Shown: positions 531-38,449 of the stretch, one piece after another
How positions within the stretch are numbered: the first letter of the stretch is position 1
Layout of the letters: each line of letters starts with the position of its first letter
DNA from: a virus
Taxonomy: Duplodnaviria; Heunggongvirae; Uroviricota; Caudoviricetes
Virus record (IMG/VR): IMGVR_UViG_2565956614_000003
DNA length: 64,000 bases
Strand: one strand, 5' to 3'
Notes under the pieces: model-generated
Told to the model about the DNA's origin: nothing
The model's input: only the letters and a program-made list of their open reading frames with translations
The model's database searches: none
Program-made: the position numbers and the translations under genes

Positions 531-1112
531 TTGTTTTTCATGCAAATTGGCTACATTCGTGTGTCAACAAATGACCAAAACACAGATTTACAAAGAAATG
601 CACTGAACTGCGCAGGATGTGAACTGATTTTTGAAGATAAAATAAGCGGAACAAAGTCAGCCAGACCAGGCTTGAAAAAGCTGCTCAGAACGTTATCAGA
701 AGGAGATACGCTGGTTGTCTGGAAGCTGGATAGGCTTGGCAGAAGTATGAAACACCTTATCACGCTTATAGAGGAGTTGCGGGAAAAAGGTGTTAATTTC
801 CGTAGTCTGACAGACAGTATTGACACATCAACACCCATGGGGCGTTTCTTTTTTCATGTCATGGGTGCTTTAGCAGAAATGGAACGTGAATTAATTGTTG
901 AGAGAACACTGGCCGGACTGGCAGCTGCACGCGAACAGGGACGCATTGGCGGACGTCGCCCGAAGTTGACAAAAGAACAACATGAGCAAATAGCGAGGTT
1001 GATCGAAAATGGCTACAGCAGGAAACAGTTGGCAATTATTTACGATATCGGTGTATCGACGATTTATCGTTATCATCCTGTAGAGAAGCGCCAAACTCAA
1101 TCTGAGCTGTAA
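531..1112 (+). CDS. cin: Serine-recombinase DNA invertase (Cin/Gin/Hin/Pin family)
   Basis: 193 aa; N-terminal catalytic motif GYIRVSTNDQ, C-terminal HTH; RBS aaagagg upstream; adjacent to tail-fibre segment. Confidence 0.95.
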   Translation: MFFMQIGYIRVSTNDQNTDLQRNALNCAGCELIFEDKISGTKSARPGLKKLLRTLSEGDTLVVWKLDRLGRSMKHLITLIEELREKGVNFRSLTDSIDTSTPMGRFFFHVMGALAEMERELIVERTLAGLAAAREQGRIGGRRPKLTKEQHEQIARLIENGYSRKQLAIIYDIGVSTIYRYHPVEKRQTQSEL

Positions 1113-8527: not shown

Positions 8528-8828
8528 AATCGCAGCGCCATTAGGCGGAGATGCCATTATCGAATTTGATGATAATGAAGAAGTTTCCGGGCGTTTAAGC
8601 ATTATCTCCGGTGACATTACCGAGGACATGATCGCTGAAGCCATAGCTGGGGCAAATCCCAATAGCTATATGGGATTCGTTAACACCCTTGATGCTCCCG
8701 CAAGTGATGTTCTCCGAACGCTGCATCTTTACGCTGGCTGGTTTGTTGATTGGCCAGCAGTAGATGGTGGCGATGAGGACGACGACGACGATGATTTTGG
8801 TGATCATGTAGACCAGATCGTATATTGA
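8517..8828 (+). CDS. Small acidic protein downstream of ddrB
   Basis: 103 aa ending in poly-Asp tract (GGDEDDDDDD); overlaps ddrB stop by 11 nt; terminator follows. Confidence 0.45.
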   Translation: MQIKIAAPLGGDAIIEFDDNEEVSGRLSIISGDITEDMIAEAIAGANPNSYMGFVNTLDAPASDVLRTLHLYAGWFVDWPAVDGGDEDDDDDDFGDHVDQIVY

Positions 8829-8830
8829 AG

Positions 8831-8860
8831 AAATCCCGCCAATCGGCGGGATTTTTTTTA
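8831..8860. terminator. Bidirectional rho-independent terminator (aaatcccgcc-aatc-ggcgggattttttt)
   Basis: Perfect 9-bp stem, 4-nt loop, T-run on + strand and A-run on the other side; between converging operons. Confidence 0.7.
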
Positions 8861-9640
8861 ATCGCTTTCCACTTCTTCCGTGGTGTTTTCTTGCAATTCT
8901 GTTAATGCAGCACGACATAGGTTCCGGGCATTGGCTATAGCTACACTTTTGACTTCATCCGTCATCGTGCAGGTAATGTACTGATCGAGTTCTTCAGCGC
9001 GGATGATGCTTTTGCCAATCAGAAACTGTATTTGCCATAGCAGATCGGCATCCATGATCAGAATTTCTGCCGGGCCTTCAGGGCCAGCCGGGAAGGAAAC
9101 ATAAGACTGTTTGCCCAGGCCGACAACTCGACAACTTGCTTCAAGAATTGCGCGCTTGAGGTCTGACTTTATAACGGAAACAGGTTGATTTTCACCAGTG
9201 ATTACGCCGTTGACATGGAAAGGCATGTAGCTTGAAATACGCTCTACTTTCCACACGCCAGCAAGCGATCCTTCATGCAGCACAATGGGGGTAACCGCGA
9301 GTTTCATCTCACCATATAACTGCTGGCAGATAGCTGGATTGCTGAATACATCTAAAGGCTCACATTCAAACAGCGGCGCAATCTGCATGAGGTCCATCAT
9401 GGTCATCCCTGGGGTACGAGCAGTAATGAATTTGCGCATACCAGTATCCATTGCGCTCCAGATTGCTACACCATGCTTTTTGCTCACTTCTTCAGTAAAG
9501 CCAAGGTGGCACATGATGGTTTTTTCGATAGCCAGATCAGAGATAGAAACCTTTTCGCCAGGTACTCCATCATTATTGATGGTCACTTCGACACTCTGGC
9601 CATTACGCAGGCGGTATTGAATTGCTTTAGTATTTTCCAC
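8858..9640 (-). CDS. Hypothetical protein, last gene of ssb operon
   Basis: 260 aa, protein-like composition, no recognised motif. Confidence 0.5.
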   Translation of the reverse strand: MENTKAIQYRLRNGQSVEVTINNDGVPGEKVSISDLAIEKTIMCHLGFTEEVSKKHGVAIWSAMDTGMRKFITARTPGMTMMDLMQIAPLFECEPLDVFSNPAICQQLYGEMKLAVTPIVLHEGSLAGVWKVERISSYMPFHVNGVITGENQPVSVIKSDLKRAILEASCRVVGLGKQSYVSFPAGPEGPAEILIMDADLLWQIQFLIGKSIIRAEELDQYITCTMTDEVKSVAIANARNLCRAALTELQENTTEEVESD

Positions 9641-9646
9641 GTTAAA

Positions 9647-10324
9647 TCACTCCACTACAAACCAGTCACATGCCAGTAAGTCGCCTACAGAAGGAACCCA
9701 CGGAACAACTACACCTTGTGCATTTTTTAAGGCGAAATAAGCACCATACGGAACGAGGTCGCCGGGGAAATATCCCTTAATGGCTTCCATTCGTGCCGGG
9801 TACTGTCCTTCAGGAACCAGCCAGCAGAATTGGTTTTCGCCGTTCCACCCGCGTCGAGCAACTTTCTTGCCATCCTTCAGCCACATCAGCGCGTCAGAAA
9901 AGTCGGCTGCTTCAAGGTCGATTTCTTCTTGTAGAGTAGCGATACCGCCAGCAGAAATAGTTACGTCCCTGGCTGTAATGAATGTCACCCCATTGTGACC
10001 TTCAATGCTGAGCGATACCCCATTTTCGAAGAAGTCGTTAGTCCGACTAAAGCCTTCTTCAAATGTTTTTTCTGGTGAATAGGACAGAGATCCGTCCTCA
10101 TAAGCGACCAGATATCCGCCAATTTCTGGTCGGTGTTTTTGCAAAAATATTTTATCAACATGGACTTTTACCCCTTCTGGCTCAACGACTTCGATGTTGC
10201 AAAAAAGGACCACATCCATTAGGGCGATAATTTCGATATCTTTGATTTTTGAGGCGCGAACTGTTTTATGGCTTTTGTATTTTGGAAGTGCCGTCAAAAG
10301 CTCTTTCGTTGTCATGTTATTCAT
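9647..10324 (-). CDS. Hypothetical protein with C-terminal DUF2829 (Tad2-like) domain; probable start MNNMTT at 10324 (longest ORF extends to 10492)
   Basis: C-terminal FSDALMWLKDGKKVARRGWNG...DLLACDWFVVE resembles DUF2829 signature; strong RBS gaggaaag before ATG at 10324. Confidence 0.5.
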   Translation of the reverse strand: MNNMTTKELLTALPKYKSHKTVRASKIKDIEIIALMDVVLFCNIEVVEPEGVKVHVDKIFLQKHRPEIGGYLVAYEDGSLSYSPEKTFEEGFSRTNDFFENGVSLSIEGHNGVTFITARDVTISAGGIATLQEEIDLEAADFSDALMWLKDGKKVARRGWNGENQFCWLVPEGQYPARMEAIKGYFPGDLVPYGAYFALKNAQGVVVPWVPSVGDLLACDWFVVE

Positions 10325-10521
10325 AGTCTTTCCTCTGCTTAAAACCTGATGTATTGCGCCTTCAGGTGGGGCAGGAATGTTTTCCCACCAGCGAACGCAA
10401 TATCTCGGGGTGTTCTTTTCGTGAAAAGCGTGTGCCATTGCCAACTTTGGCGTTTGTTTGCGAGTTCGTGCTTTTGTCGGCGTCTGGACCACCGCTTTTC
10501 TTTCAGTCGTTTTTTACACAT

Positions 10522-11010
10522 TCAAAACGGAATATCGTCGTCAAAGTCCATTGGAGGTTCGTTATTGGCGCTGCTCTGAGGTTTGCCGCCACCGCTGTAT
10601 TGCTGGTGGTTTTGAGGTTGGTTTGACTGCCCCCAGCCATTTGAGGACTGTGAATCGTCGCGGCGAGTGCCGATCATTTGCATGGTGCCGCCCTGGCTGA
10701 CGATAATTTCCGTCGTGTAACGTTCTACACCGGCGTCATCAGTCCACTTACGGGTTTTAAGTTTCCCTTCGATGTAGACCTGAGAACCTTTTCGTAAATA
10801 CTCACTCGCAATTTCAGCAAGTTTTCCGAACAAAACGACTTTATGCCATTCTGTTTGCTCTTTCTGTTGGCCCGTTTGCTTATCGCGCCATGATTCATTC
10901 GTTGCGATGCTGAGTCTTCCGACTGCGCCGCCATTTGGTATATACCTGATCTCCGGGTCTTGCCCCAGGGTACCAATCAGGATGACTTTGTTTACACCGC
11001 GTTGTGCCAC
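10522..11010 (-). CDS. ssb: Single-stranded DNA-binding protein
   Basis: 162 aa; OB-fold N-terminus close to E. coli SSB, Gly/Gln-rich linker, acidic C-terminal tail DFDDDIPF. Confidence 0.92.
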
Positions 11011-24406: not shown

Positions 24407-27319
24407 ATGTCAAAAGGGTTCACATTCGAAAAGAACTTACCGCATCAGAAAGCAGGTGTCGATGCGGTGATGAACGTTTTTGTTTCCGCGACATCTCATC
24501 AGGAGGATAATGTTTCTATTCGCCTGTTAGTTAATCCAGAATTACGGCTTACTGAACAGCAATACTATAAAAATATAAAAAAAGTTCAGGAACTCAATGG
24601 TATTGAACATGTAAAAAATAATTACGATGCTGGAAGCAACGTAATCGATGTTTCTATGGAGACAGGTACAGGTAAAACGTATACCTACACTAAAACAATT
24701 TTTGATCTGAACAAATCATTTGGCATTAATAAGTTTATCATTATTGTTCCTACTCTATCGATCAAAGCTGGAACAGTGAACTTTTTGAAAAGCGATGCGT
24801 TAAAAGAACACTTTAGAGATGATTATGAGCGTGAAATAAAGACTTACGTTGTTGAAAGTCAGAAAAATGCCGGTAAAAGCACAAAATCGTATATGCCTCA
24901 AGCTATACATGATTTTGTTGAAGCTAGTAATTTCAATAAGAAATATATACACGTTCTTGTTATTAACACGGGAATGATTCACTCTAAGAATTTAAATTCC
25001 ACTTATGATGTTGGCTTGCTTGACAATCATTTTGATTCTCCCTTTTCAGCTCTTGGTGCGGTAAAACCATTCATTATCATTGATGAACCACATAAATTTC
25101 CTACTGGTAAAAAGACATGGGAAAATATAGAGAAGTTTAATGCTCAATATATTATCCGCTACGGTGCGACCTTTAGTGAAGGCTATAAGAATTTAGTTTA
25201 TCGACTTACAGCTGTGGATGCATTTAATGAAGACCTTGTTAAAGGTATTGATGCGTACATTGAGGATATTGTTGGTGATGGTGACGCCAACCTAAAGTTC
25301 ATTAAATCTGATGGGGAAGAAGTTACATTTGAGCTAAATGAAAATAACAAGAAAACTTTATTTAAGTTAACAAAAGGTGAATCTCTATCTAAGACACATA
25401 GTGCTATTCACGATTTAACTCTTGATGCCTTAGGCAAGAATACAGTAGTGTTGAGTAATGGTATTGAGCTAAAAATTGGTTGCTCAATAAACCCCTATTC
25501 TTACGATCAGACACTTGCTGACAGCATGATGAGGAAAGCTATCAAAGAACACTTTAAGTTAGAAAAAGAGTTTCTGACACAAAGGCCACGCATAAAGCCT
25601 CTTACTCTTTTCTTTATTGATGATATTGAAGGTTATCGTGACGGTAATAATATTGCCGGAAGTTTGAAAGCTAAGTTCGAAGAATATGTTTTGGCAGAAG
25701 CTAATGAACTGTTAAAAATAGAAAAAGATGAGTTTTATAGTAACTATCTTGAAAAAACAGTTAAAGATATATCTTCCGTTCATGGCGGTTATTTTTCAAA
25801 AGATAACAGTGATAAGGATGATAAAATCGAGAAGGAAATCAACGAAATCCTTCATGACAAAGAGCTTTTGCTGTCTTTAGATAATCCACGTCGTTTCATT
25901 TTCTCAAAATGGACGTTGCGTGAGGGATGGGATAATCCTAATGTCTTTCAGATCTGTAAGCTCCGTTCGAGCGGTAGTACCACATCCAAGCTTCAAGAGG
26001 TAGGGCGCGGTTTGCGTCTTCCTGTGAATGAATACATGTGTCGAGTGAAAGACCGCAATTTTACCCTTAAATATTATGTCGATTTTACAGAAAAGGATTT
26101 TGTTGACTCACTTGTTAAAGAGGTCAATGAGAGTTCTTTCAAAGAAAGGGTTCCAAGTAAGTTTACTCAAGAGCTTAAGGAACAAATCAGGGCTCAGTAT
26201 CCTGAGCTTTCATCCAGAGCACTAATGAATGAACTTTTCAATGATGAAATCATTGATGAAAATGATAATTTCAAAGATTCAGATGCCTACAGCCGCTTAA
26301 AATCCAAATATCCAGCAGCATTCCCTATAGGAGTGAAACCAGGTAAAATCAAAAAAGCTACTGATGGAAAAAGACGCACTAAAATGCGTGTTGGTAAGTT
26401 CAGTGAGCTGAAAGAACTATGGGAATTAATCAATCAAAAAGCGGTGATTGAGTACAAAATAAACAGTGAAAATGAGTTTTTATCCATTTTCAAGTCATTC
26501 ATGCTCGAAGAAACAGAACGATTTACCAAATCAGGCGTTCATACTCGCATTGATAAAATTTACATCCACAATGATATGGCAATGTCGAAAAGCATTGTTA
26601 GTGATGACGATGACTTTGCTAAGCTAAACACAATGAGTTATCGAGAGTTTCTCGATAACTTATCACAGACTATTTTTGTTAAACACGATACTTTACATAA
26701 AGTTTTTTGTGATATAAAAGACACTATTAATATCACTGAATACCTGAATATTCAAACAATCAGAAAAATTAAATCTGGTTTTAGTAAGTATTTGTTGAAC
26801 AATTCGTTTAACAAATTCAGCCTCGGATATAATTTGATTTCGGGGTCAATTCATCCCACAAAGTTCACAAATGCTGATGGTAAGCCTCTAGACGAGGTAT
26901 TATCAAGTGATCTTGGTGTATTACAGGATAATTCAAAAGCACCATTAGATACTTATCTTTTTGAAGAGGTTTTTTATGATTCAGAGCTTGAAAGGCGTAA
27001 TATAACAGATAGAGAGATCCAGTCTGTTGTTGTTTTTTCAAAGATACCGAAGAATTCTATTAAGATCCCGGTAGCTGGTGGATACACTTACTCACCCGAT
27101 TTTGCTTATGTTGTAAAAACAGCAGAAGGTGATTATCTTAACTTTATCATTGAAACAAAAAACGTAGATAGTAAGGATAGTTTACGGCTTGAAGAAAAAA
27201 AGAAAATTGAACATGCCCAGGCGCTTTTCAATCAAATAAGTCAGTCTGTTAAAGTTGAATTCAAAACGCAGTTTGCTAATGATGATATTTATCAGTTAAT
27301 CAAGAGCGCATTACCATAA
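24407..27319 (+). CDS. res: Type III R-M restriction subunit (Res)
   Basis: 970 aa; helicase motifs GTGKTYT and IIIDEPHKF; C-terminal PD-(D/E)xK-like SPDFAYVV...IIETK; start 3 nt after mod stop. Confidence 0.9.
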   Translation: MSKGFTFEKNLPHQKAGVDAVMNVFVSATSHQEDNVSIRLLVNPELRLTEQQYYKNIKKVQELNGIEHVKNNYDAGSNVIDVSMETGTGKTYTYTKTIFDLNKSFGINKFIIIVPTLSIKAGTVNFLKSDALKEHFRDDYEREIKTYVVESQKNAGKSTKSYMPQAIHDFVEASNFNKKYIHVLVINTGMIHSKNLNSTYDVGLLDNHFDSPFSALGAVKPFIIIDEPHKFPTGKKTWENIEKFNAQYIIRYGATFSEGYKNLVYRLTAVDAFNEDLVKGIDAYIEDIVGDGDANLKFIKSDGEEVTFELNENNKKTLFKLTKGESLSKTHSAIHDLTLDALGKNTVVLSNGIELKIGCSINPYSYDQTLADSMMRKAIKEHFKLEKEFLTQRPRIKPLTLFFIDDIEGYRDGNNIAGSLKAKFEEYVLAEANELLKIEKDEFYSNYLEKTVKDISSVHGGYFSKDNSDKDDKIEKEINEILHDKELLLSLDNPRRFIFSKWTLREGWDNPNVFQICKLRSSGSTTSKLQEVGRGLRLPVNEYMCRVKDRNFTLKYYVDFTEKDFVDSLVKEVNESSFKERVPSKFTQELKEQIRAQYPELSSRALMNELFNDEIIDENDNFKDSDAYSRLKSKYPAAFPIGVKPGKIKKATDGKRRTKMRVGKFSELKELWELINQKAVIEYKINSENEFLSIFKSFMLEETERFTKSGVHTRIDKIYIHNDMAMSKSIVSDDDDFAKLNTMSYREFLDNLSQTIFVKHDTLHKVFCDIKDTINITEYLNIQTIRKIKSGFSKYLLNNSFNKFSLGYNLISGSIHPTKFTNADGKPLDEVLSSDLGVLQDNSKAPLDTYLFEEVFYDSELERRNITDREIQSVVVFSKIPKNSIKIPVAGGYTYSPDFAYVVKTAEGDYLNFIIETKNVDSKDSLRLEEKKKIEHAQALFNQISQSVKVEFKTQFANDDIYQLIKSALP

Positions 27320-27331
27320 TTCCAGTTTAAA

Positions 27332-27353
27332 AGGAGGTGAAAACCTCCTTTTT
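27332..27353 (+). terminator. Rho-independent terminator after res (aggaggt-gaaa-acctccttttt)
   Basis: 7-bp stem, tetraloop, T5. Confidence 0.7.
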
Positions 27354-27394
27354 ATGACATCCAACACGACCTGAAAGAAGTGGCGCTCAGGTCG

Positions 27395-28036
27395 TTAAAA
27401 ATAGTTTCCCTTTCCAGTTAAGATTCCATGTGGAACGCTTTTTTCCGCAAGTCTCTGTGTGCCGCGAATTATGTTAATCAGTGGGCTTAGTAACGATGGT
27501 TCCTGGCGTGGCTCAACTTCTCCAGCCATTGCCCTGATGTAGTCGGAGTTTGCAACGTTGTTGTATTCCGTTGCGAAGCAGCATAACAACGTCAGAACGT
27601 GCTCTGTCGTTATTTCGCTCCAGTTGATGTTGAAAAATTCATCGCCTTTTTTGTCATGTTCGGAATCGAAGATGCTTTGGTGGAGGATGTATTTGCCGGA
27701 TTCCTTGCGCGGTAACTTGATCGCTTTCTGGCGTTCCAATTCCTTATAAATCTGCATTGCTTCAATCAGTACCGGTCTACCGTTCATGAAGGGATCACGC
27801 AACCTTACACGCTGGCCAACTCGACCGGTAATAAAGCTGTTTTCCTCTTCCACCAGCACGATAAAACCCTTTTCCTCTTTTTCTCGCAATTCGCGCAGCA
27901 GCTGGAGTTCAATATCGCGGCGGCGTTCAGGGTAGCTGGTCCGCTCAGCCATTATCAGCTCATTGTTGATCCATGCAGCAGTCATTGACGCCGGTTTGCC
28001 GACGCTCATTGAAACAACGCATATTTTCTTATCCAT
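27395..28036 (-). CDS. mat: Mat-like particle maturation protein (start MDKKICVV preferred; longest ORF extends to 28147)
   Basis: Synteny between res and ref; RBS ggggg before ATG at 28036; late-promoter-like motif upstream. Confidence 0.5.
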   Translation of the reverse strand: MDKKICVVSMSVGKPASMTAAWINNELIMAERTSYPERRRDIELQLLRELREKEEKGFIVLVEEENSFITGRVGQRVRLRDPFMNGRPVLIEAMQIYKELERQKAIKLPRKESGKYILHQSIFDSEHDKKGDEFFNINWSEITTEHVLTLLCCFATEYNNVANSDYIRAMAGEVEPRQEPSLLSPLINIIRGTQRLAEKSVPHGILTGKGNYF

Positions 28037-28166
28037 AGCGCCCCCTACAAAAAAGAAAAGCCACCAGCGGCGGCTTAGCAATACAACAGAAGGTAGCGCC
28101 CGGTACTCAGACTGTGCCGTCCATGGAATATTTGAAAAGGGATCCATCCGTACCGGGCGTGTGATG

Positions 28167-28188
28167 ATTCTGACTCAAGTCACTTGTC
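28167..28188 (-). promoter_or_regulatory. Late-promoter-like element (gacaagtga-N7-cagaat) upstream of mat
   Basis: 8/9 9-mer, 7-bp spacer; -10 hexamer imperfect. Confidence 0.3.
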
Positions 28189-28225
28189 AGTTGTCAATCA
28201 TTTAAGATTAAAAATAATATATTTA

Positions 28226-28786
28226 TTAGTGCATGATGTTTGCCATTTCATAGGCGTCAGCCAGCAACTCCATCTCTGACTTGTTCAGCAAGGTGAATTC
28301 TTTCTTGCCTCCAACCACACCATCGGCATGAACAGGGACCAGCCAGGGGTATTTTTCTCTTACTTCAGCCGGTGCTGCATGCTGGTGGTGCCATCTACAA
28401 AGTGGCAATTGCTTTTTGTGACAACCAGGCGCGGTACGACCGGAGATATGGTGCAGAGACACCTCTTCAGATATTACTCCATGCATATAGCAGGCAATGC
28501 AGGGGAGAGCGCCAAGAGCATTGGCTATGCGCCGTTCCTCCGCCGTCGGTGTTCGTCCCTTCAAGTCACGAGATTTTATTTTTACCGCGCTTTTCCGCGT
28601 TTTGCTGGCTGGTGGGCGCTCTTTCTGTTTAGCGATACGGCGATCGATAGTATTCCGCATTTTCTGATATTGAGATTCTCGCCAGGCCGGATCAGCCAAC
28701 TTCTCCCGTTGCCGAGCGATCGCTCGTTCTCTGGCTGCCTTCTGCCACTTGCGGCACTGTTCAATTTTTTGTTCGATTGTTTTCAT
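28226..28786 (-). CDS. ref: Ref, HNH-type endonuclease (recombination enhancement function)
   Basis: 186 aa; HNH/zinc motif CIACYMHG...HHISG...CRWHH; basic N-terminus; C1 operator-like sites upstream. Confidence 0.85.
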   Translation of the reverse strand: MKTIEQKIEQCRKWQKAARERAIARQREKLADPAWRESQYQKMRNTIDRRIAKQKERPPASKTRKSAVKIKSRDLKGRTPTAEERRIANALGALPCIACYMHGVISEEVSLHHISGRTAPGCHKKQLPLCRWHHQHAAPAEVREKYPWLVPVHADGVVGGKKEFTLLNKSEMELLADAYEMANIMH

Positions 28787-28789
28787 ATG

Positions 28790-28817
28790 GCAAAAAAAAA
28801 GGCGGCCTAATGGCCGC
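28790..28817 (-). terminator. Rho-independent terminator on minus strand abutting ref start (ggcggcc-atta-ggccgcc + T9)
   Basis: 7-bp GC stem followed by 9 T on minus strand; T-run ends 4 nt before ref ATG. Confidence 0.6.
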
Positions 28818-28872
28818 CAATGATGTCAAGGAGTGAAGTAATGGCAACGTCTTCGTAGTTGACAAAAACTGC

Positions 28873-28902
28873 GGCTCAATTATAGCAATCAATTAGAGCA
28901 AT
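28873..28902 (-). promoter_or_regulatory. Tandem C1 operator-like motifs upstream of ref (caattatagcaat / caattagagcaat)
   Basis: Two overlapping copies of the operator core ATTAGAGCAAT (one with a single mismatch); about 100 bp upstream of ref. Confidence 0.5.
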
Positions 28903-29034
28903 GATAGATATTTTGTTAATCGCGAATCACATTTTTTCACTTCAGTACCTGTGTGCTATACTCCTTCTTGATTGATTGGATGCGGAATACAAACCCGCTC
29001 TTTTGTGCAGCCTGGCTCCTTGCCAGGCTTTTTT

Positions 29035-29346
29035 TTATTTCAGCATGGAAGCTGTTAACGCTTTGGACCTTGCTGAACTGATTGAGAGGGCTTTGTCAAC
29101 GTGCCCCAAAAATTCGCCAAACTCAGACATCACTTTGGCAAAACCGCGCCGTGCTTCTTCCTCGGTGGCATTCATCACGAAATGTTCAGCACTACGAATA
29201 CTTTTGACAGGGAACGCAACAGATATTGAGTCAATATCAGCCATTCTATCGCTTAACTTTACAGTGACAATGACGGCTGGCGACTGAATATTAGTGCTTA
29301 CAGACAGCACTACATATTTTCCGCCGATGTCGAAATCCTTTCTCAT
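29035..29346 (-). CDS. cra: Cra-like small protein downstream of cre
   Basis: 103 aa between cre and ref; synteny. Confidence 0.5.
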   Translation of the reverse strand: MRKDFDIGGKYVVLSVSTNIQSPAVIVTVKLSDRMADIDSISVAFPVKSIRSAEHFVMNATEEEARRGFAKVMSEFGEFLGHVDKALSISSARSKALTASMLK

Positions 29347-29396
29347 ATGTCACCATAAATATCAAATAATTATAGCAATTTCTTATATATTGACGG

Positions 29397-30428
29397 CTAA
29401 TCACCATCTTCCAGCAGGCGCACCATTGCCCCCGTTTCACTATCCAGATTACGGATATAGTTCATGACAATATTTACGTTGGTCCAGCCACCAGCTTGCA
29501 TGATCTCCGGTATTGAAACTCCGGCGCGGGCCATATCTCGCGCGGCTCCGACACGGGCACTGTGTCCAGACCAGGCCAGGTACCTCTGGCCAGAGTCATC
29601 CTTAGCCCCGTAAATCAATCGGTGAGTTGCTTCAAAAATCCCTTCCAGGGCGCGAGTTGATAGCTGGCTGGTGGCAGATGGCGCGGCAACACCATTTTTT
29701 CTGACACGGCAAAACAAGTAGTTATTCGGATCATCAGCCACACCAGAGACAGAAATCCATCGCTCAACCAGTTTAGTTACCCCCAGACTAAGTGCCTTCT
29801 CTACACCAGCGGTGCTAACCAGCGTTTTCGTTCTGCCAATATGGATTAACATTCTCCCACCGTCAGTACGTGAGATATCTTTAACTCTGATCCTAGAAAT
29901 TTCGGCTATACGTAACAGGGTGTTATAAGCAATCCCCAGAAATGCCAGATTACGTATATCCTGGCAGCGATCGCTATTTTCCATGAGTGAACGAACCTGG
30001 TCGAAATCAGTGCGTTCGAACGCCAGCGCCTGTTTTGCACGCTCACCGGCATCAACGTTTTCTTTTCGGATCCGTCGCATGACCAGTGAAACAGCATTGC
30101 TGTCACTTGGTCGTGGCAGCCCGGACCGACGATGAAGCATATTTAGCTGGCCCAAATGTTGCTGGATAGTTTTCACTGCCAGACCGCGCGCCTGAAGATA
30201 TAGAAGATAATCGCGAACATCTTCAGGTTCTGCGGGAAACCACTTCCGGTTATTCAACTTGCACCATGCCGCCCACGACCGGCAAACGGACAGAAGCATT
30301 TTCCAGGTATGCTCAGAAAACGCCTGGCGATCCCTGAACATGTCCATCAGGTTCTTGCGAACCTCATCACTTGTTGCATCGACCGGTAATGCAGGCAAAT
30401 TTTGGTGTACGGTCAGTAAATTAGACAT
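29397..30428 (-). CDS. cre: Cre tyrosine site-specific recombinase
   Basis: 343 aa; MSNLLTVHQNLPALPVDATSDEVRKNLMDMFRDRQAFSEHTWKMLLSVCRSWAAWCKL... appears essentially identical to P1 Cre; catalytic R-H-R-Y residues present. Confidence 0.98.
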   Translation of the reverse strand: MSNLLTVHQNLPALPVDATSDEVRKNLMDMFRDRQAFSEHTWKMLLSVCRSWAAWCKLNNRKWFPAEPEDVRDYLLYLQARGLAVKTIQQHLGQLNMLHRRSGLPRPSDSNAVSLVMRRIRKENVDAGERAKQALAFERTDFDQVRSLMENSDRCQDIRNLAFLGIAYNTLLRIAEISRIRVKDISRTDGGRMLIHIGRTKTLVSTAGVEKALSLGVTKLVERWISVSGVADDPNNYLFCRVRKNGVAAPSATSQLSTRALEGIFEATHRLIYGAKDDSGQRYLAWSGHSARVGAARDMARAGVSIPEIMQAGGWTNVNIVMNYIRNLDSETGAMVRLLEDGD

Positions 30429-30753
30429 TTAACACTCAGATAATGGTTTTAAGTAAAGTGTACAGGATCGGCTCTGCCTTTACCTGTTTATGGTTCTCGC
30501 CATAGAAACGCCAGCGACCGCGCGTGCGTACTATTTTCTCTTCACCGCGCGATAATGACAGTTGGCAACTATCACGATCAAACCCTTTTGCCCGCCAGTA
30601 ACCACGGTTTTTCTCAAGCTCAAGATGAGTGGACACTTTAGCAGCTGAATATCCCATTTTTCACCTCTGATTGATTGGTGGTGCTAAGTGCGCTACGCGA
30701 AATCTGGAGCACTAACACTGCCAACTTTTCACAGATTTTACGTAGCGCAAACT

Positions 30754-30775
30754 TGATCAAATGATCAAGTGATCA
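30754..30775. promoter_or_regulatory. Cluster of three GATC (Dam) sites as TGATCA hexamers in the cre upstream region
   Basis: tgatcaaatgatcaagtgatca; GATC at 30755, 30763, 30771. Confidence 0.4.
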
Positions 30776-30886
30776 CTATTTGACCTGATAAGGTATTGAA
30801 CTGTATGGATTTACAGGTAAATTGATCATGTTCAATAACCCTTAAGGTCTGAAGAGGAGTTTACGTCCAGCTGCGCATAAAAATCA

Positions 30887-30903
30887 AGAATTATTAGAGC
30901 AAT
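30887..30903 (-). promoter_or_regulatory. C1 operator-like site (15/17) upstream of coi
   Basis: agaattattagagcaat. Confidence 0.55.
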
Positions 30904-30969
30904 AAATTTTGAGAGAAAAATCCCACTCCACCAGCCAAAAACTGGATTGTTTTTCATAGTTGTTTGACA

Positions 30970-30986
30970 ATTGCTCTAATAAATTA
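30970..30986 (+). promoter_or_regulatory. C1 operator-like site (16/17) overlapping a TTGACA -35-like hexamer upstream of coi/c1
   Basis: ttgaca-attgctctaataaatta. Confidence 0.6.
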
Positions 30987-31224
30987 TAGTTTTGCCGCCG
31001 TTACGTAATACGACTTTGGATTCACTATTTAATGTGTCTTCAGCGTTGTAGAGCGGCTCAGAAGGAAATGAGCAAACAGGGAAACCTTATACAACGGCAT
31101 TACAGCTATGCATTGCTCATCTTACACACAGCGCAATGTTGTTAGATTACCCCAGCATGGATCATGGGTGAAACAGTAGGTCAGAGCTTCAGGCTCTGTG
31201 TTGTCAATACAGTGAGGCATAATT

Positions 31225-31434
31225 ATGGCTTTCATTCAACCAACCATCGACGACGTTAGACATTGCTCTAACGCTTTATCTGTAGACCCTGCCGAAACCG
31301 ACGCTGCCCGCGCCATTGCTGAACACTACTCAAAGATATCCAATCAGGAGTACCGCATCACCCAAGACGACCTGGATGACCTCACTGACACAATCGAATA
31401 TCTCATGGCAACTAACCAGTTAGACTCACAATAA
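31225..31434 (+). CDS. coi: Coi, C1 inactivator
   Basis: 69 aa immediately upstream of c1, downstream of operator cluster; synteny. Confidence 0.7.
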   Translation: MAFIQPTIDDVRHCSNALSVDPAETDAARAIAEHYSKISNQEYRITQDDLDDLTDTIEYLMATNQLDSQ

Positions 31435-31544
31435 ATGCACTAATAAATCTATTATTTTTGTTTGATCCCTCTATAATATAGGTCAGTAATGACCGGTTTT
31501 CTCAGCCGGGCGTTATTGACCATGTCAATTCTGGAGGAGGATCA

Positions 31545-32396
31545 ATGATAAATTATGTCTACGGCGAACAACTGTACCAGGAGTTCGTCAGCTTCAGGGA
31601 TCTCTTTCTAAAAAAAGCTGTTGCACGCGCCCAACACGTTGATACAGCCAGCGACGGTCGTCCTGTACGCCCGGTTGTCGTTCTACCGTTCAAAGAAACT
31701 GACAGCATTCAGGCTGAAATTGATAAATGGACTTTAATGGCGCGGGAACTGGAACAGTACCCAGACCTCAATATCCCAAAGACTATTTTATATCCAGTGC
31801 CTAACATCCTTCGCGGTGTGCGCAAGGTTACAACTTATCAGACAGAAGCTGTGAACAGCGTCAACATGACCGCTGGCCGCATTATTCATCTGATTGATAA
31901 GGACATTCGCATCCAAAAAAGCGCGGGGATCAATGAGCACAGTGCGAAATACATAGAGAACCTGGAAGCAACAAAAGAGCTAATGAGGCAGTACCCGGAG
32001 GATGAAAAATTCCGTATGCGCGTACACGGCTTTAGCGAAACAATGCTGCGCGTCCACTACATTTCCAGTAGCCCTAACTACAATGATGGTAAATCAGTTA
32101 GTTACCATGTGCCACTGTGTGGCGTGTTTATCTGCGATGAAACTCTCCGTGATGGAATTATCATCAACGGTGAATTCGAAAAAGCAAAATTTAGCCTTTA
32201 TGACTCCATAGAACCGATCATCTGCGACCGCTGGCCGCAAGCAAAAATATATCGCCTGGCAGATATTGAAAATGTAAAAAAACAAATTGCCATCACTCGC
32301 GAAGAGAAAAAGGTTAAGTCAGCCGCATCAGTTACGCGCAGCCGTAAAACCAAGAAGGGGCAGCCAGTAAACTACAACCCCGAAAGCGCGCAATAA
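31545..32396 (+). CDS. c1: C1 primary immunity repressor
   Basis: 283 aa; position in the cre - operators - coi - c1 arrangement; C1-type operator 17-mers across the window. Confidence 0.85.
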   Translation: MINYVYGEQLYQEFVSFRDLFLKKAVARAQHVDTASDGRPVRPVVVLPFKETDSIQAEIDKWTLMARELEQYPDLNIPKTILYPVPNILRGVRKVTTYQTEAVNSVNMTAGRIIHLIDKDIRIQKSAGINEHSAKYIENLEATKELMRQYPEDEKFRMRVHGFSETMLRVHYISSSPNYNDGKSVSYHVPLCGVFICDETLRDGIIINGEFEKAKFSLYDSIEPIICDRWPQAKIYRLADIENVKKQIAITREEKKVKSAASVTRSRKTKKGQPVNYNPESAQ

Positions 32397-32425
32397 ATTA
32401 TGCCCGGCATCAACCGGGCATTCTT
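32395..32425. terminator. Bidirectional terminator-like hairpin between converging c1 and antirepressor-like gene (tgcccgg-catcaa-ccgggca)
   Basis: 7-bp stem with A-rich 5' and T-rich 3' flanks in a 32-bp convergent gap. Confidence 0.5.
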
Positions 32426-32428
32426 CCA

Positions 32429-33544
32429 TTATTCAGCTGCCACCGGTTTTAACAAGCCAGCATCGAGCAGTTTACGCGTCAACCACTGCTGGCCTTTACC
32501 CGTTAATTGAGGCGTCAACCGTATCTGGTAGCCATCTTCATCATCCAGCACCACTTCTTTCACCGTGAAATACCCCGCGTTGATGTACTGCTGGAACGGC
32601 ACATTTTTACGTCCACCGGACGCTATCAGGATGCCGTTCTCCCGTAACCAGACAAACAGCGCGTTTTGCTTAAGTCCAACAACCTTTGCAAAATTCCCAA
32701 TCAGGATCCCTTTAGCTACTGATACCCGGTCGGCAAAATCGACTTTAGGAGCGGCGGCCACCAGCTGCTGATTTAGCTGGTGGGCTTTCTGTTCCAGAAG
32801 CTGCTTTTGTTCAGCCAGTTCGGCAGCCAGGCGCAGAGCTTCTGGAAGCGTCTGGGGGATTGCAACCGGTTGCTGTTCTTTTTGCCGGAAGTAGCTGTCT
32901 TCCAGTTTTTCAAAGAATGCCCATGCCTGATCGGTTTCGAGCATTTTAGCGTGGCGGGCTGCGCCGCGTTCCGTCCAGAGGATGAGTGAGCGGGCTTTAG
33001 GAGAGATAGGATTTTGTGAGTTACTTAAAGTCACCCGCAAATTGTTCAAATCATCTCCAATAACTTTATAGAAATGCTTGCCTTCACAAAAACGTTCAGC
33101 ATTACGGGAAAAGTTCTTCTTGATGTTATCCGCATCTGTCCCATACCCCTTAGCAAGGATCTTAGTTGTCACTACACGCACTCCCTGCCACTCTAGAACG
33201 GGAATTTCATCCGGCTGACTTTGAACAACCACCAGTTCTGATTCCTGAACTAAAGGTGTATTAATTTTTTCAGATTTAACGTTAGTAGCTTTCATTCTGT
33301 GTGCCTCCTTGCGTGTTTCGGCTGCGACGGTTGCGTAATTCAGATGCCCCTGTTCGAGCAGGTATTCACGGATATCAGACAGCAGGATACGGTGAACAGC
33401 GTTCTTGTCCTTTCTCCGGTAAAGTTGTTTGGTGATCATGAAGTAGTTGGCAATAACGCCTGGTATATCCCTGGTACTGATACAGGCAGTGTGCTGTTCA
33501 ATTGCCTCGATCATCTCTTCACGGGTGACTAATGACGTTCTCAT
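32429..33544 (-). CDS. Antirepressor-like protein (ORF6N-like central domain plus C-terminal KilAC/Ant domain)
   Basis: 371 aa; central LEWQGVRVVTTKILAKGYG...FCEGKHFYKV and C-terminal DFADRVSVAKGILIGNFAKVVGLKQNALFVWLRENGIL typical of phage antirepressors; strong RBS aggaggg. Confidence 0.6.
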   Translation of the reverse strand: MRTSLVTREEMIEAIEQHTACISTRDIPGVIANYFMITKQLYRRKDKNAVHRILLSDIREYLLEQGHLNYATVAAETRKEAHRMKATNVKSEKINTPLVQESELVVVQSQPDEIPVLEWQGVRVVTTKILAKGYGTDADNIKKNFSRNAERFCEGKHFYKVIGDDLNNLRVTLSNSQNPISPKARSLILWTERGAARHAKMLETDQAWAFFEKLEDSYFRQKEQQPVAIPQTLPEALRLAAELAEQKQLLEQKAHQLNQQLVAAAPKVDFADRVSVAKGILIGNFAKVVGLKQNALFVWLRENGILIASGGRKNVPFQQYINAGYFTVKEVVLDDEDGYQIRLTPQLTGKGQQWLTRKLLDAGLLKPVAAE

Positions 33545-33926
33545 AGTCCCTCCTGAGCAGAAGCGTTAACAGGGAGGCACCAGTAACTGAGAGAATTGCG
33601 TGAATCAGTGGAAAAACGGGCAGAGAAAATACATGGGGCGTCAGGAAGCTGAGAGCGGGCCTCATCTTCTGTCGGTGCAATAACGAAGTGATAGTGACGT
33701 TTTTGGCAGGAGTAAAAGCGCCAGATAAATTCAGGATGAGTTGGGGTAGGGATAGTAGCCATATTGGCAGCCTCCTTAGACGTTGGTATGTAACCACCGC
33801 AGAAGAGACCAATCTTGCTGGCGGTGGACTGTACGGAGTTGGCCTTACTGGCGTCCAAGGTAACCAGCCTACCCGAAGGTAGCCCCATACAGCCCACCAT
33901 TGTAGAGGTGTGCGTGTACGCCGATA

Positions 33927-33950
33927 CAAAAAAAGACGCGAGCGGCGTCT
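33927..33950 (-). terminator. Rho-independent terminator on minus strand about 150 bp downstream of pacB (agacgc-cgctc-gcgtct + T7)
   Basis: 6-bp stem, 5-nt loop, T7 on minus strand; flanked by additional cgatac/gtatcg complementarity. Confidence 0.5.
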
Positions 33951-34080
33951 GTATCGCCTTAGACTTAAGCGGGAGGCCAATCCCGGCACCCGTTTTAATG
34001 AGGTGCCTGATAAGCATAAACCGAAAATGCCTCAAGGCGCAAGAGGTCAGGTTCAATGTAACATCGGCAGTTAAAAAACA

Positions 34081-34097
34081 CAATTTATTAGAGCAAA
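34081..34097 (-). promoter_or_regulatory. C1 operator-like site (15/17) immediately downstream of pacB stop
   Basis: caatttattagagcaaa. Confidence 0.5.
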
Positions 34098-34100
34098 TAT

Positions 34101-35585
34101 TCATTCATTAAGCCATGCCAGAGCTTCATCAACCTGCGCTTCGTCTTCGACGCTAAGCACTTCATCCTGGGGAACATAATCCGCCAGCATAGCGAAACAA
34201 TATGTATCCCAATGGTCTGGTGAGTGCAGGTTGATTTTTTTCTTCATATCCTCCTTACTCATCACCTTCCATTGACCTGCGGAGTTAATCCCTACAGGGA
34301 TTTTCGACGCTTCCTCAATAGTTTCATTACCCTTATCCAGTCTCATACGACCAGATTTTACGGCCTCTGCGGCTTGAACGTTGGCATAAGCACGTTTATC
34401 AAAGTACAGGCTCTTATCTTCACGGCTATGCATCTTTTTACCCCAGCGTATACGCTGTACGGTAATACCATAATACTCGTACATCAGATCCGCCGTTGCT
34501 TTACCCAGCCCATCGCCGTCTATCGCTATGGTGATATTTGGGAATCGCTCAGGATTACATTCTGCGAAAATTTTGGCGGCAAGCTGCGTTTCTGTAACGT
34601 CTGTGTATTCCAGCATTCGATAGTTGATTACACGGCGTTTATTTCGCTGGCCGGACACCATCATGATATTGATAACGGACTTATCCCGTCCCGTACCACC
34701 AGCAACGTCCACACATGCAAGCCAGCCCCATCCTTTTGCAATCTTGACTTTCCGCCGCGTTGCACGTTCAACCTCATCACGCCCAAGAAGGAAGCCATCC
34801 TGTGATTTAGGGAATAGGCCGCGTACCTTAATCATGTACATAGGGTTATCACGCCCGCCGTACTCCGCCAGCTTCATTTTGATAAATGCTGGCGTTACCA
34901 GCGGTGATTCCTCACTGTTAAGCGTGATCGCCGTATAAACGCCATCAGGGTTACCAGGACGCTTGGCCAGTTTATGGTGAGTATCGTAGAAATAGCCGCT
35001 TGGGCGTGTAGGCTGTGACAGTAATAAGATGCGGTTATCCTGTCCGGTAAGAGCACCGGTGATGATACCGAAAGCTCTATCACTGACACCGGAGGCTTCA
35101 TCGATAATATACAGAAGATGATCTGCGTGTTCACCGGCGAGAGCTTCTTCACTTCCCAGACGAAAGCCCTTCGGTACTACAGTCCATACACCTTTACCAG
35201 TAACCTCATAGAAAGCGGTTTCTGTCAGAACAAAATAATCAGCAAGCCATGGAAAACGGCTGGTGGCAGTAGCCCAGTTTATCTTGATGTACTTGAATAT
35301 ACCGGTCATTACCTGCTGAATTTTGTTCGCAACGATAATGGCGCGGGCACCGGGATACATGATTATGAACAACATGATCATGATAGAAGTCATGTCTGAT
35401 TTCCCGGTACCGTGACCAGACGAAACAGATGTCTTGCTACCCTGTTCCTGCACAGACTCAATAATCAGATCCTGCTGCCAGGTAGGTGTTTTGCCGAACA
35501 AAACATCAGCGGCCGCAATCCAGTCATAACGATATAGCGCCACCAGCTCGCGCCAACGTGGATCCGTTACGCAACTTCTGGCCAT
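34101..35585 (-). CDS. pacB: PacB, terminase large subunit
   Basis: 494 aa; ATPase/nuclease-type terminase organisation; start overlaps pacA stop; synteny with P1 pacA-pacB. Confidence 0.85.
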
Positions 35586-36778
35586 TAATCATCATCCCCG
35601 TATAGCTTGCGGGTAACTTCTTCGTCTTCCTCCTCGTCTTCGTCCAGGTCTTGTTCCAGCCATGGTTCGTTTGATACACCTTCAGTATCAACATCTCCAT
35701 AACCGCCTGTATCAACGATATCGGCGATTTCTTCCCTACGTTGCTCAATCCACAATGCGGCATCGGCGCGGCGGTTGGCGGCCCGTTCTCGCGCAACTTT
35801 GTCCAGATCTTCAAGAGAAGGGCCACCGACGGCAGTTTGCCTTTCCTCATCATCGGTATTGGTCTTAGGAGCACGCAGATCGGCTTTGATTTGCTCCAGC
35901 ATCAGGGGCGGCACTTTCCCGCCATGCGCCTCGATGAATTCAGCTGCTTCCAGCACTGACCAGTTATTTTCACGCTTTCGTTCGTATGCCAGCTTAACAA
36001 TGCCAGCTTGCCCCATAGACAAAGCGTGCTTTTCCGCCTCCCGGCTTTCTTTTCGATAGTTATTCCGGATGCTGTAAATGGTGTTGATCAGGCTGCTTAT
36101 CTGCGCGGAACAGCTGTTTAGCATGCTCGCGATACGGTATTCAGGCGGAGTACCTTCATCATCTTCTTTTTGCTGATCGCGCATTTCCTGAACCAAGCGA
36201 ATACACGTATCCCTGGCGTTCTCCAGCATAAGGAGATGAGAGAGAGACTTTTCCAGAAGAGTGGTTTCCAGAACATCAGCCCCGGACCGACGCAACATAG
36301 CGCGCGCGGCCTTCCGCGCTTCAACGTTATCTATCAGGTAATCGCCAGCTTCGAATTCAAAGCGTTCACCATCATCATCCAGGGTGTCGCGTTCCAGGCG
36401 ATCACGTAAGGTCCGGTGGGCGCGGGTGATCACGTCATGATCATCAGAACGATCATTTATGCGCTTATTCTGGCGCTTCGCGTTCTCGACTGCGGCACTG
36501 ACAACAGCATTAACTCTTTGTTTTTCAGCCATTTCAGCCACAATGTGATCACCTGCACGTTGATCATTAGCGTGATCAATGATCATGCTTTTTAGTGGTT
36601 TTCTGACAGGCTTATTTGGCTTACGGCTGTCCGCTGTTCCGGTGTCTTCTTTGAATGCACGGAGATAACGACGTGCGGTGTTTGGGTTGAGATTAAACTC
36701 GGCGGCATATTGTGCGATGGTGTAACCACCATCTCGCGCCAGGCGAGCAAAATTCTTCTTGTGATCGTCCCAGGTCAC
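35585..36778 (-). CDS. pacA: PacA, terminase small/pac-recognition subunit (contains pac site)
   Basis: 397 aa; N-terminal HTH-like region, acidic C-terminus; pac hexamer clusters lie in its 5' part. Confidence 0.85.
36426..36585. other. pac packaging site: two clusters of TGATCA/GATC hexamers (3 + 4) about 110 bp apart within pacA
   Basis: Hexamers at 36426, 36437, 36449 and 36546, 36561, 36573, 36580; each carries a Dam GATC. Confidence 0.75.
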
Positions 36779-36814
36779 TTATGCTTCCTTTCGTATAAAA
36801 CTCTTTTTGACGCG

Positions 36815-36836
36815 AGGGTAACGAAAGTCACATGTC
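36815..36836 (-). promoter_or_regulatory. Late-promoter-like element (gacatgtga-N7-taccct) upstream of pacA
   Basis: 7/9 9-mer, 7-bp spacer, TANNNT. Confidence 0.35.
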
Positions 36837-36864
36837 AAAAGGCCCGGAACGGGCAAGCAATCAA

Positions 36865-37317
36865 TCAGATACGTGCGGATGTGGCATTACCGTAATGACG
36901 GTGCTGACGGACCACCTTATTGAAAAGTTGACGCGCCATCACCCAAGGCTGGTGCTCCCGGCGTTCCTTTTCGTCCTGCGTCATATAGAGTTCGTTCTGG
37001 AGTTTTTCATCAAACCGGCGCGGAGCGCGGCTGCGGCGAAAGAATTCAGGATTCAGAGAGTGGATCTGAAATCTACGTGGGCGTGTACTGTCATCAATCA
37101 AAACAGACGAATACTTAGACACAGCGATAGCCTTTAAGCGCAGATAAACATCGCGCTTATCGACATCCAGATGCGGGTATTCCTTTTCAAGAATTGCTGC
37201 GAGCTCTTTCGCTGATAGAAGAGATTTAGTGCGGATCATGTAATCCGCAATCTCGTACGATGTTATTCGTGAGTGATTTATTTCCATGAAGTGGCGTCCC
37301 TGCCAGTTAAGTAACAT
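36865..37317 (-). CDS. lpa: Lpa-like late promoter activator
   Basis: 150 aa basic protein directly upstream of pacA; C1 operator-like site about 70 bp upstream; synteny. Confidence 0.6.
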   Translation of the reverse strand: MLLNWQGRHFMEINHSRITSYEIADYMIRTKSLLSAKELAAILEKEYPHLDVDKRDVYLRLKAIAVSKYSSVLIDDSTRPRRFQIHSLNPEFFRRSRAPRRFDEKLQNELYMTQDEKERREHQPWVMARQLFNKVVRQHRHYGNATSARI

Positions 37318-37387
37318 CCTGTCACCTACTGATTAGCCCATGTCAACTAATCAACGTGGAATATAATACCCTCGATTAAAGAAATAG

Positions 37388-37404
37388 CAATACATTAGAG
37401 CAAT
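37388..37404 (-). promoter_or_regulatory. C1 operator-like site (14/17) upstream of lpa
   Basis: caatacattagagcaat. Confidence 0.45.
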
Positions 37405-37405
37405 T

Positions 37406-38449
37406 TTATCTAACGCTCGACGAGTGACTTGTGATAGCGCCGACTCCAAGCGCGTAATCAAAGAACAATCGTTGATGCATCGCCAGCCTACCGTGCGTCT
37501 TCTCCCAATTATCGCGGTCACGCTCAATATCACGCTGGCATGACTGGCACAGAGGAATAGCATAAATGTCATGCGCGCATAATCGACTATGACGAACGAT
37601 ATAAGGCGTAATGTGAGCGCCAGCTCCCGCAGCTCCACAGCCACAGCATGGACGGGAAGCCACAAAGTCCATGTACTCGGGCAATTTTAGCGATTGAAGT
37701 TTTGGTATTTTGAAATGCGCCATACCTGGGTCGGAGTCAACATCCACAGGGCATACTTTTGCACGCATCGGCGCGGCGCGTTCTTCCATCATCTGAACAT
37801 ATGCTGTAGCGCGATCGTCATACGGGCGAATATCCGCCTCTTTCAGAGGTCCGCTATCCTGCGGAGTAGCCTTCATCTTATTTATTGATATGCGGCAGAC
37901 TTCTTCCGGCATCAGGTGCATCATGTTGCGCATGAAAGCCCACCAGCACAGCTCCTGAATACTTAAATCATGGCTATTTGAAAGGCCCATTTCCTGACGG
38001 GCGACATCCAGTATCCAGTTAACGCGATTATTGTGCAGCGTTTCTTTCAGCTCATTAAAACCACGCATCCGGTAATGGTTATCGTGATGCCAGCACAACA
38101 ACACCGCGCTATTGTCTCGTTCAGCGTGGACAATATGGTTGTCACACCAACTACGATCTGCGGCCTGGCATTGACCCTCTTTCCTACGCAACCACGCCAC
38201 CAGCGCGTCAATTCCACCAATACGGCGAAACAGTTCATCGCTGTTAAAAAACGGCTGCAACGCCTCATTTGTTGCCATGGTTTGCTCGGTAACAACGAGG
38301 CCGTCTTCCATGTGCTCGATTAACTCACGCGGCACCGGCTCCATGATAAATTTACGGCCAGCCTCCACCAGTTTTCTGACCTCCTGATCCACTTTGAACG
38401 TGGCGAGGCCAAGCTCTTTTTGTACAAAGGGAGTAATTACGGCTTTCAC
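37406..38449 (-). CDS. pdcB: PdcB-like protein (post-doc), Cys-rich C-terminus
   Basis: 347 aa; C-terminal CCGCG...CxxC cluster; position downstream of doc. Confidence 0.5.

Follow-up and report, generated by a model that had tools for sequence, protein, structure and literature searches.

Organisation of the cre-lox region

The stretch of DNA analysed here (IMG/VR record IMGVR_UViG_2565956614_000003, 64,000 nt, hereafter the window) carries, between cre and c1, the genes and regulatory sites listed below. The positions of the regulatory sites were transferred from the curated annotation of P1.

29397-30428, minus strand: cre, 343 aa, intact and full length
30436-30657, minus strand: cra (upf0.2), 73 aa, identical to P7 Cra
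30735-30760, minus strand: P3cre (pR1) promoter, 1 mismatch to P1
30755, 30763 and 30771, plus 30824: Dam GATC sites
30796-30823, plus strand: P2coi promoter, identical to P1, overlapping the LexA box at 30799-30818
30845/30846, no strand: junction of a 37-nt gap from which T, the 34-nt lox and TA are missing
30858-30887, minus strand: P4cre promoter, identical to P1
30887-30903, minus strand: C1 operator Oc1e (Op99e), identical to P1
30964-30993, plus strand: P1coi promoter with C1 operator Oc1d (30970-30986), identical to P1
31225-31434, plus strand: coi (C1 inactivator), 69 aa
31545-32396, plus strand: c1 repressor, 283 aa, ESA75547.1 / WP_023154369.1 (Escherichia coli)

A single residue separates the Cre protein from P1 Cre (A178S) and a single residue, at position 280, from P7 Cre; all seven catalytic residues (R173, E176, K201, H289, R292, W315 and Y324) are kept. 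The gene order, Cre, the P7-identical Cra, the four Dam sites and the LexA box are those of the Punavirus P1/P7 Cre-lox module, as are the cre and coi promoters and the C1 operators. The promoters P1-P4cre and P1/P2coi, the LexA box, the Dam cluster and the operators Oc1a-e map with 0-1 mismatches each, Oc1c and Oc1ab included, and Pc1 with 3. In a lox-bearing phage P2coi is directed rightward across lox, toward coi and c1, and P4cre leftward across the lox position, toward cra and cre. The deposited window differs from the module in having neither the 34-nt lox nor 3 flanking bases. Apart from the site itself nothing is missing, and the annotated promoters and operators that flank it are intact on both sides.

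A 37-nt gap at the position of lox

The P1/P7 module has a 34-nt lox (13-nt inverted arms and an 8-nt spacer, ATGTATGC) ~0.4 kb upstream of cre, and the site is gone from the window at exactly this place. Across the junction at 30845/30846, marked here by a slash, the window reads ...gttcaataacccttaa/ggtctgaagaggagtttacgtccagc..., or over a longer span ...GTTCAATAACCCTTAA/GGTCTGAAGAGGAGTTTACGTCCAGC.... Alignment of the lox-cre region with P7 immC (AY751747) gave one gap of exactly 37 nt, TATAACTTCGTATAATGTATGCTATACGAAGTTATTA, and in a multiple alignment with P7 the missing bases were T + ATAACTTCGTATAATGTATGCTATACGAAGTTAT + TA, with a one-A ambiguity in the boundary of the gap. There are no N runs in the window, and over 17.7 kb zero gaps were found against P7. 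Over 5.5 kb, a comparison with five close relatives showed no indel other than these 37 nt. The gap is therefore not part of any general assembly or indel noise and fits a targeted excision.

A CTTAAG (AflII) site arises at the junction (window 30842-30847), which is judged to be coincidental because CTTAA already exists in the native flank and only the next G was needed. A 41-aa ORF is also made across the junction; neither this ORF nor its 50-aa lox-containing form had an exact match in the protein collection.

The search for lox elsewhere covered the 64-kb window, i.e. positions 1–64000 of the 85,903-nt scaffold. Neither the 13-mer ATAACTTCGTATA, allowing up to 2 mismatches, nor the full 13-8-13 lox pattern, allowing up to 3, was found in these 64 kb. 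Candidates for a pseudo-lox or a relocated lox in the window were rejected as the best had 9-11 mismatches in the 26 arm positions, the level given by shuffled sequence; the best single site, with 9/26, equalled the shuffled sequence. Generic 13-8-13 inverted repeats number only three in the window, and none is lox-like.

The first-pass annotation had been made from the sequence alone, and its description of the locus is borne out. It had noted an intact cre essentially identical to that of P1, a P1-like order of cre, Dam-site cluster, C1 operators, coi and c1, the precise loss of ~37 bp containing loxP between cre and coi at the usual place of the site, and no copy of the 13-mer in the intergenic regions that it had scanned. 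The flanks that it had given for loxP, CCCTTAAT-lox-TAGGTCTGAAGAGGAGTTTACGTCCAGC, are correct for both P1 and P7. Wild-type P1 does not share the window junction, since its flanks enclose lox.

lox in related phages and plasmids

An 801-nt query running from cra to coi matched 21 phage records and 702 PLSDB plasmids. The full-length matches listed align in two pieces and span 837-839 nt in the record, and therefore contain ~37 nt more than the window, with one exception, a three-piece alignment that also spans a transposase. A 'lox recombination site' is annotated at the position of the gap in both P7 and phiW39. Related loci obtained by protein look-up or BLAST had lox in 24 cases out of 24, and lox is intact in 80 other P1-like contigs of IMG/VR. 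In PLSDB, 686 records match a lox-centred 81-mer as compared with the 702 that match the cre-coi interval, which places lox in about 680/702. The absence of lox in P7/P1-like plasmids is thus exceptional.

The window junction did not occur in phages, in PLSDB, in complete E. coli genomes, in GTDB representatives, in JGI metagenomes or, when searched as a strict 36-mer, in IMG/VR. Two 28-nt matches in PLSDB were considered as gaps and rejected, since lox is present there, with a variant first base in the arm. The left lox arm begins with a changed base (GTAACTTCGTATA) in two plasmids, at loci L002 (NZ_CP059910.1, 1215-1260) and L003 (NZ_MW390536.1).

The bases next to lox are polymorphic, with T or G at -1 (plus rare variants) and T or C at +1; the commonest lox flank in IMG/VR (L044-L123) is TAAG/TAGG, found in 53/80. 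The left lox flank of the window has 0/416 mismatches to P7, and 34/700 positions of its right flank differ (window 30430-31545). Among loci L001 and L012-L031 the reverse pattern is seen in L023-L030, where the right flank has 0/700 and the left flank 6-8/416 mismatches. Hence lox is a haplotype breakpoint, a pattern that fits Cre-lox exchange between co-resident P1-like plasmids.

Two further features of the relatives were observed. A DDE transposase (IS) lies between coi and lox in L014, L016 and L020 (1384-2364), and lox is kept in all of these. In L035 (4938-8225) and L040 (5183-8224) the dam/dmt methyltransferase is enlarged, at 1095 or 1013 aa as against 672 aa, and the enlarged genes match Hint_2 and LAGLIDADG_3; from these domains the enlargement looks like an intein-type insertion.

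Backbone of the window and neighbouring blocks

By BLAST, the window is collinear with the complete P7 genome in reverse orientation, with an identity of 92-99.8% depending on the block, and several blocks are replaced relative to P7. When PLSDB and complete E. coli genomes were searched, the best 25-kb matches were natural plasmids of 97-99% identity, none of them identical. The E. coli draft contig KI521826.1 (GCA_000485635.1), of 85,903 nt, is identical to the window over 25545-38396, has c1 at 31545 and contains the junction. An exact look-up of the window C1 protein returned two contigs only, namely KI521826.1 and a metagenome contig with an intact lox. No raw-read (Logan/SRA-derived) contig with exactly this C1 protein was found.

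The Tn3 of P7 is absent from the window, which has at the place of the transposon (28243-28250) an intact ref (28226-28786), encoding a RecA-dependent nuclease of 186 aa. On the minus strand between c1 and pacB, at 32429-34104, lie ant, which encodes a 371-aa antirepressor with the domains ORF6N and ANT, and a gene of the Ash family (187 aa); c1 directly adjoins pacB in P1, P7 and the two contigs L042 and L043 that are described below. A block at 8826-10522 stands in place of the P7 nmpC region and holds a minus-strand gene (9647-10492) whose product, of 281 aa, has at its C terminus a Tad2-like (Thoeris anti-defence 2) domain, recognised with E = 2.5e-22. A Band_7/SPFH-domain protein is encoded at 59624-60451, minus strand, in a block without alignment to P7 (59605-61061); the exact protein is extremely widespread, occurring in 17,093 index blocks. 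Near the start of the scaffold, which lies ~0.5 kb before the gene, a Cin-like serine invertase (Resolvase and HTH_7 domains) is encoded at 531-1112, plus strand, its DNA being 69% identical to P7 cin. In P7, cin adjoins the invertible C-segment.

Correspondence of the missing bases with a loxP-based linker

The mate-pair linker of the 454 GS FLX Titanium paired-end protocol, 5'-TCGTATAACTTCGTATAATGTATGCTATACGAAGTTATTACG-3', has the structure TCGT-loxP-TACG and also serves Cre-Lox Illumina mate-pair libraries (PMC5199103; PMC7038657). In Roche paired-end libraries Cre performs the circularisation between LoxP adaptors, LoxP is then found by software in order to split or trim the reads, and one tool variant deletes LoxP and concatenates its flanks (PMC3273786).

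The longest common substring between this linker and the native P7/P1 lox context (TTAAT-lox-TAGG) is 37 nt long and is the very sequence missing from the window. The missing stretch is therefore the maximal match to a known synthetic linker, and P7 from which the 37-nt match has been removed is exactly the window 50-mer 30821-30870. A local alignment stops at 37 nt because extension would gain one match at the price of two mismatches on the left, and one match at the price of one mismatch on the right.

The bases that stood in the window before the loss can be judged from relatives with the same flanks. Of the loci that share the 416-nt left flank of the window without a mismatch, 10/10 have T at -1, and of those that share its 700-nt right flank without a mismatch, 7/7 have TA at +1,+2. 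The original is therefore inferred to have been CCCTTAA(T-lox-TA)GGTCTG, with a linker match of 37 nt, and the site-restored window would read CCCTTAAT-lox-TAGGTCTG.

Recurrence of the gap and its dependence on the flank haplotype

For the haplotype with G at -1 the linker match is 36 nt, so that an excision artefact should leave CCCTTAAG/GGTCTG in such a plasmid. A pattern that covers the lox-less junctions of both the T(-1) and the G(-1) forms had no match in GTDB representative genomes or JGI metagenomes. In IMG/VR it found two further lox-less contigs. One of these, L043 (UViG 2565956617_000003), has a P1-type left flank and a 37-nt gap. The other, L042 (UViG 2565956626_000007), is of the G(-1) haplotype, and its sequence, CCCTTAAGGGTCTG, has the junction CCCTTAAG/GGTCTG and a gap of 36 nt, as predicted. 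The boundaries of the gap thus track the flank haplotype, 36 nt being missing in L042 and 37 nt in the window and L043.

In L042 and L043 cre, cra, coi and c1 are intact where covered and the ant insertion is absent. Each of the two contigs is 3-3.5% divergent from the window, and the divergence between them is 1.2%. The gap therefore occurs in three different plasmids, and the IMG genome ids of two of them, 2565956617 and 2565956626, are only 9 apart. Judging only from these neighbouring ids, L042 and L043 may come from the same submitter. The CAGG flank haplotype is predicted to give gaps of 34/35 nt. IMG/VR yielded none, although the batch may simply contain no such plasmid.

DISCUSSION

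Given that the 37 absent bases are exactly the linker-matching part of the native site, software appears to have cut a real site. We consider it highly probable that the lox gap is the product of an in-silico excision of linker or adaptor sequence rather than a real feature, and we judge that lox is absent from the record only, the plasmid itself not being lox-less. In Cre-Lox and 454 libraries the loxP-based 42-nt linker is placed at the circularisation junction, and for this reason pipelines search reads or contigs for the linker and cut it out. The native TTAAT-lox-TAGG would then be recognised over 37 consecutive bases (T + lox + TA), these would be excised and the flanks would be joined without a seam. 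Any further copy of lox on the scaffold would be excised in the same way.

The acting step may have been a contig-level screen for adaptors or contamination before or at submission, or a removal at the read level followed by concatenation. Excision at the contig level is likelier than at the read level, given that the window has no gaps and is clean elsewhere. Reads that contain the linker are ordinarily split there, and this would leave a broken contig; contig-level screening with deletion is therefore the likeliest step. The flagged span might have been deleted in the submitter's pipeline or in answer to a submission screen. What speaks against excision is that the seamless join requires a less usual step than the standard splitting of reads, and that IMG/VR yielded none of the predicted 34/35-nt gaps.

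Two known procedures resemble the proposed event. In the removal of linkers from 454/Cre-Lox mate-pair data the bases lost would be, as here, the maximal linker match, 37 nt with T(-1) and 36 nt with G(-1). This procedure differs in that it is meant for the library junctions within reads, whereas here a native genomic site would have been struck and the flanks are fused seamlessly inside an 85.9-kb scaffold. Screens of assemblies for vector and adaptor sequence, of the VecScreen/UniVec type, can trim false positives, and the present case is alike in that a contig correct in other respects has lost a short internal stretch identical to a synthetic sequence. A match to a P1-derived cloning vector would reach far past 37 nt, and so the linker rather than vectors is indicated.

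A genuine natural deletion might have occurred if the 13-bp inverted arms of lox formed a hairpin and replication slipped, or ends were joined, across its base. The lox strand does fold, with a 13-bp stem and -9.6 kcal/mol, the gap is nearly symmetric about lox with a 1-nt microhomology at the junction, and P1 lox and cre mutants are viable. A gap centred on an inverted repeat with such a microhomology is also what is seen in palindrome-stimulated deletion by slipped mispairing. However, this process leaves unexplained both the recurrence on three backbones and the dependence of the 36/37-nt length on the linker, a 3-nt microhomology (TTA) only one base away was left unused, and lox has been kept in every other natural relative, among hundreds. 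The deletion would have needed three independent origins, in different plasmids whose database entries are neighbours by chance, and its shift in length from 37 to 36 nt would have had to equal the prediction from an artificial linker. A threefold origin, in neighbouring entries only and with end points that track an artificial oligonucleotide, is not credible, and a natural deletion is accordingly very unlikely. Were it true, the result would be a Cre+ lox- plasmid that used host recombination for cyclisation and resolved its dimers poorly.

The gap could also have been made deliberately, in a laboratory delta-lox derivative designed, say, so as not to recombine with loxP constructs, and the cleanness of the gap and the AflII site created at the junction would suit such a construct. 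The backbone, however, is not that of laboratory P1 or P7 but a wild P7-like mosaic, without Tn3 and with the extra ant/ash block, 92-99% identical to P7 by block and 97-99% identical to natural plasmids, and the gap is shared by three different backbones. The window contains no FRT scar, and the ORFs of the non-P7 blocks gave only phage and accessory domains in Pfam, with no marker genes. We give deliberate engineering virtually no credence. A mis-join or collapse by the assembler, unrelated to any linker screening, might be expected at an inverted repeat such as lox; the 13-nt arms are, though, much shorter than read or k-mer lengths, lox has survived in hundreds of short-read assemblies of relatives, and a collapse would not follow the linker match in two haplotypes. 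Such an error is exceedingly improbable.

The explanations offered by the first-pass annotation thus fare differently from its statements about the sequence, which stand: neither engineering nor a natural true loss of lox is upheld. In particular, its picture of a Cre-encoding element truly without its own lox does not agree with a gap that equals the linker match base for base, recurs, and changes in length from 37 to 36 nt. The role of Cre is the resolution of multimers (PMC10879196). There is only a slim chance that lox has really been lost from the window plasmid and the two others and that natural Cre+ lox- phage-plasmids exist; in that event such plasmids would need another route to dimer resolution and cyclisation, and Cre would have been kept for a different role.

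The finding is chiefly a warning about data quality, in that a native loxP can be mistaken for a loxP-based mate-pair linker and silently lost from public assemblies. At least three P1-like contigs are affected among the deposits, and the hazard is a systematic one for native loxP in older draft assemblies. Surveys of the conservation of Cre-lox, of recombination hot spots in phage-plasmids or of 'engineered' signatures could be misled, and screens for contamination by synthetic constructs should expect true loxP in Enterobacteriaceae that carry P1-like plasmids. For the biology of the element itself the gap has no significance. In the cell the plasmid almost certainly carries a normal lox; it is a P7/P1-like plasmid prophage of the ordinary kind, and only its record has had lox cut out.
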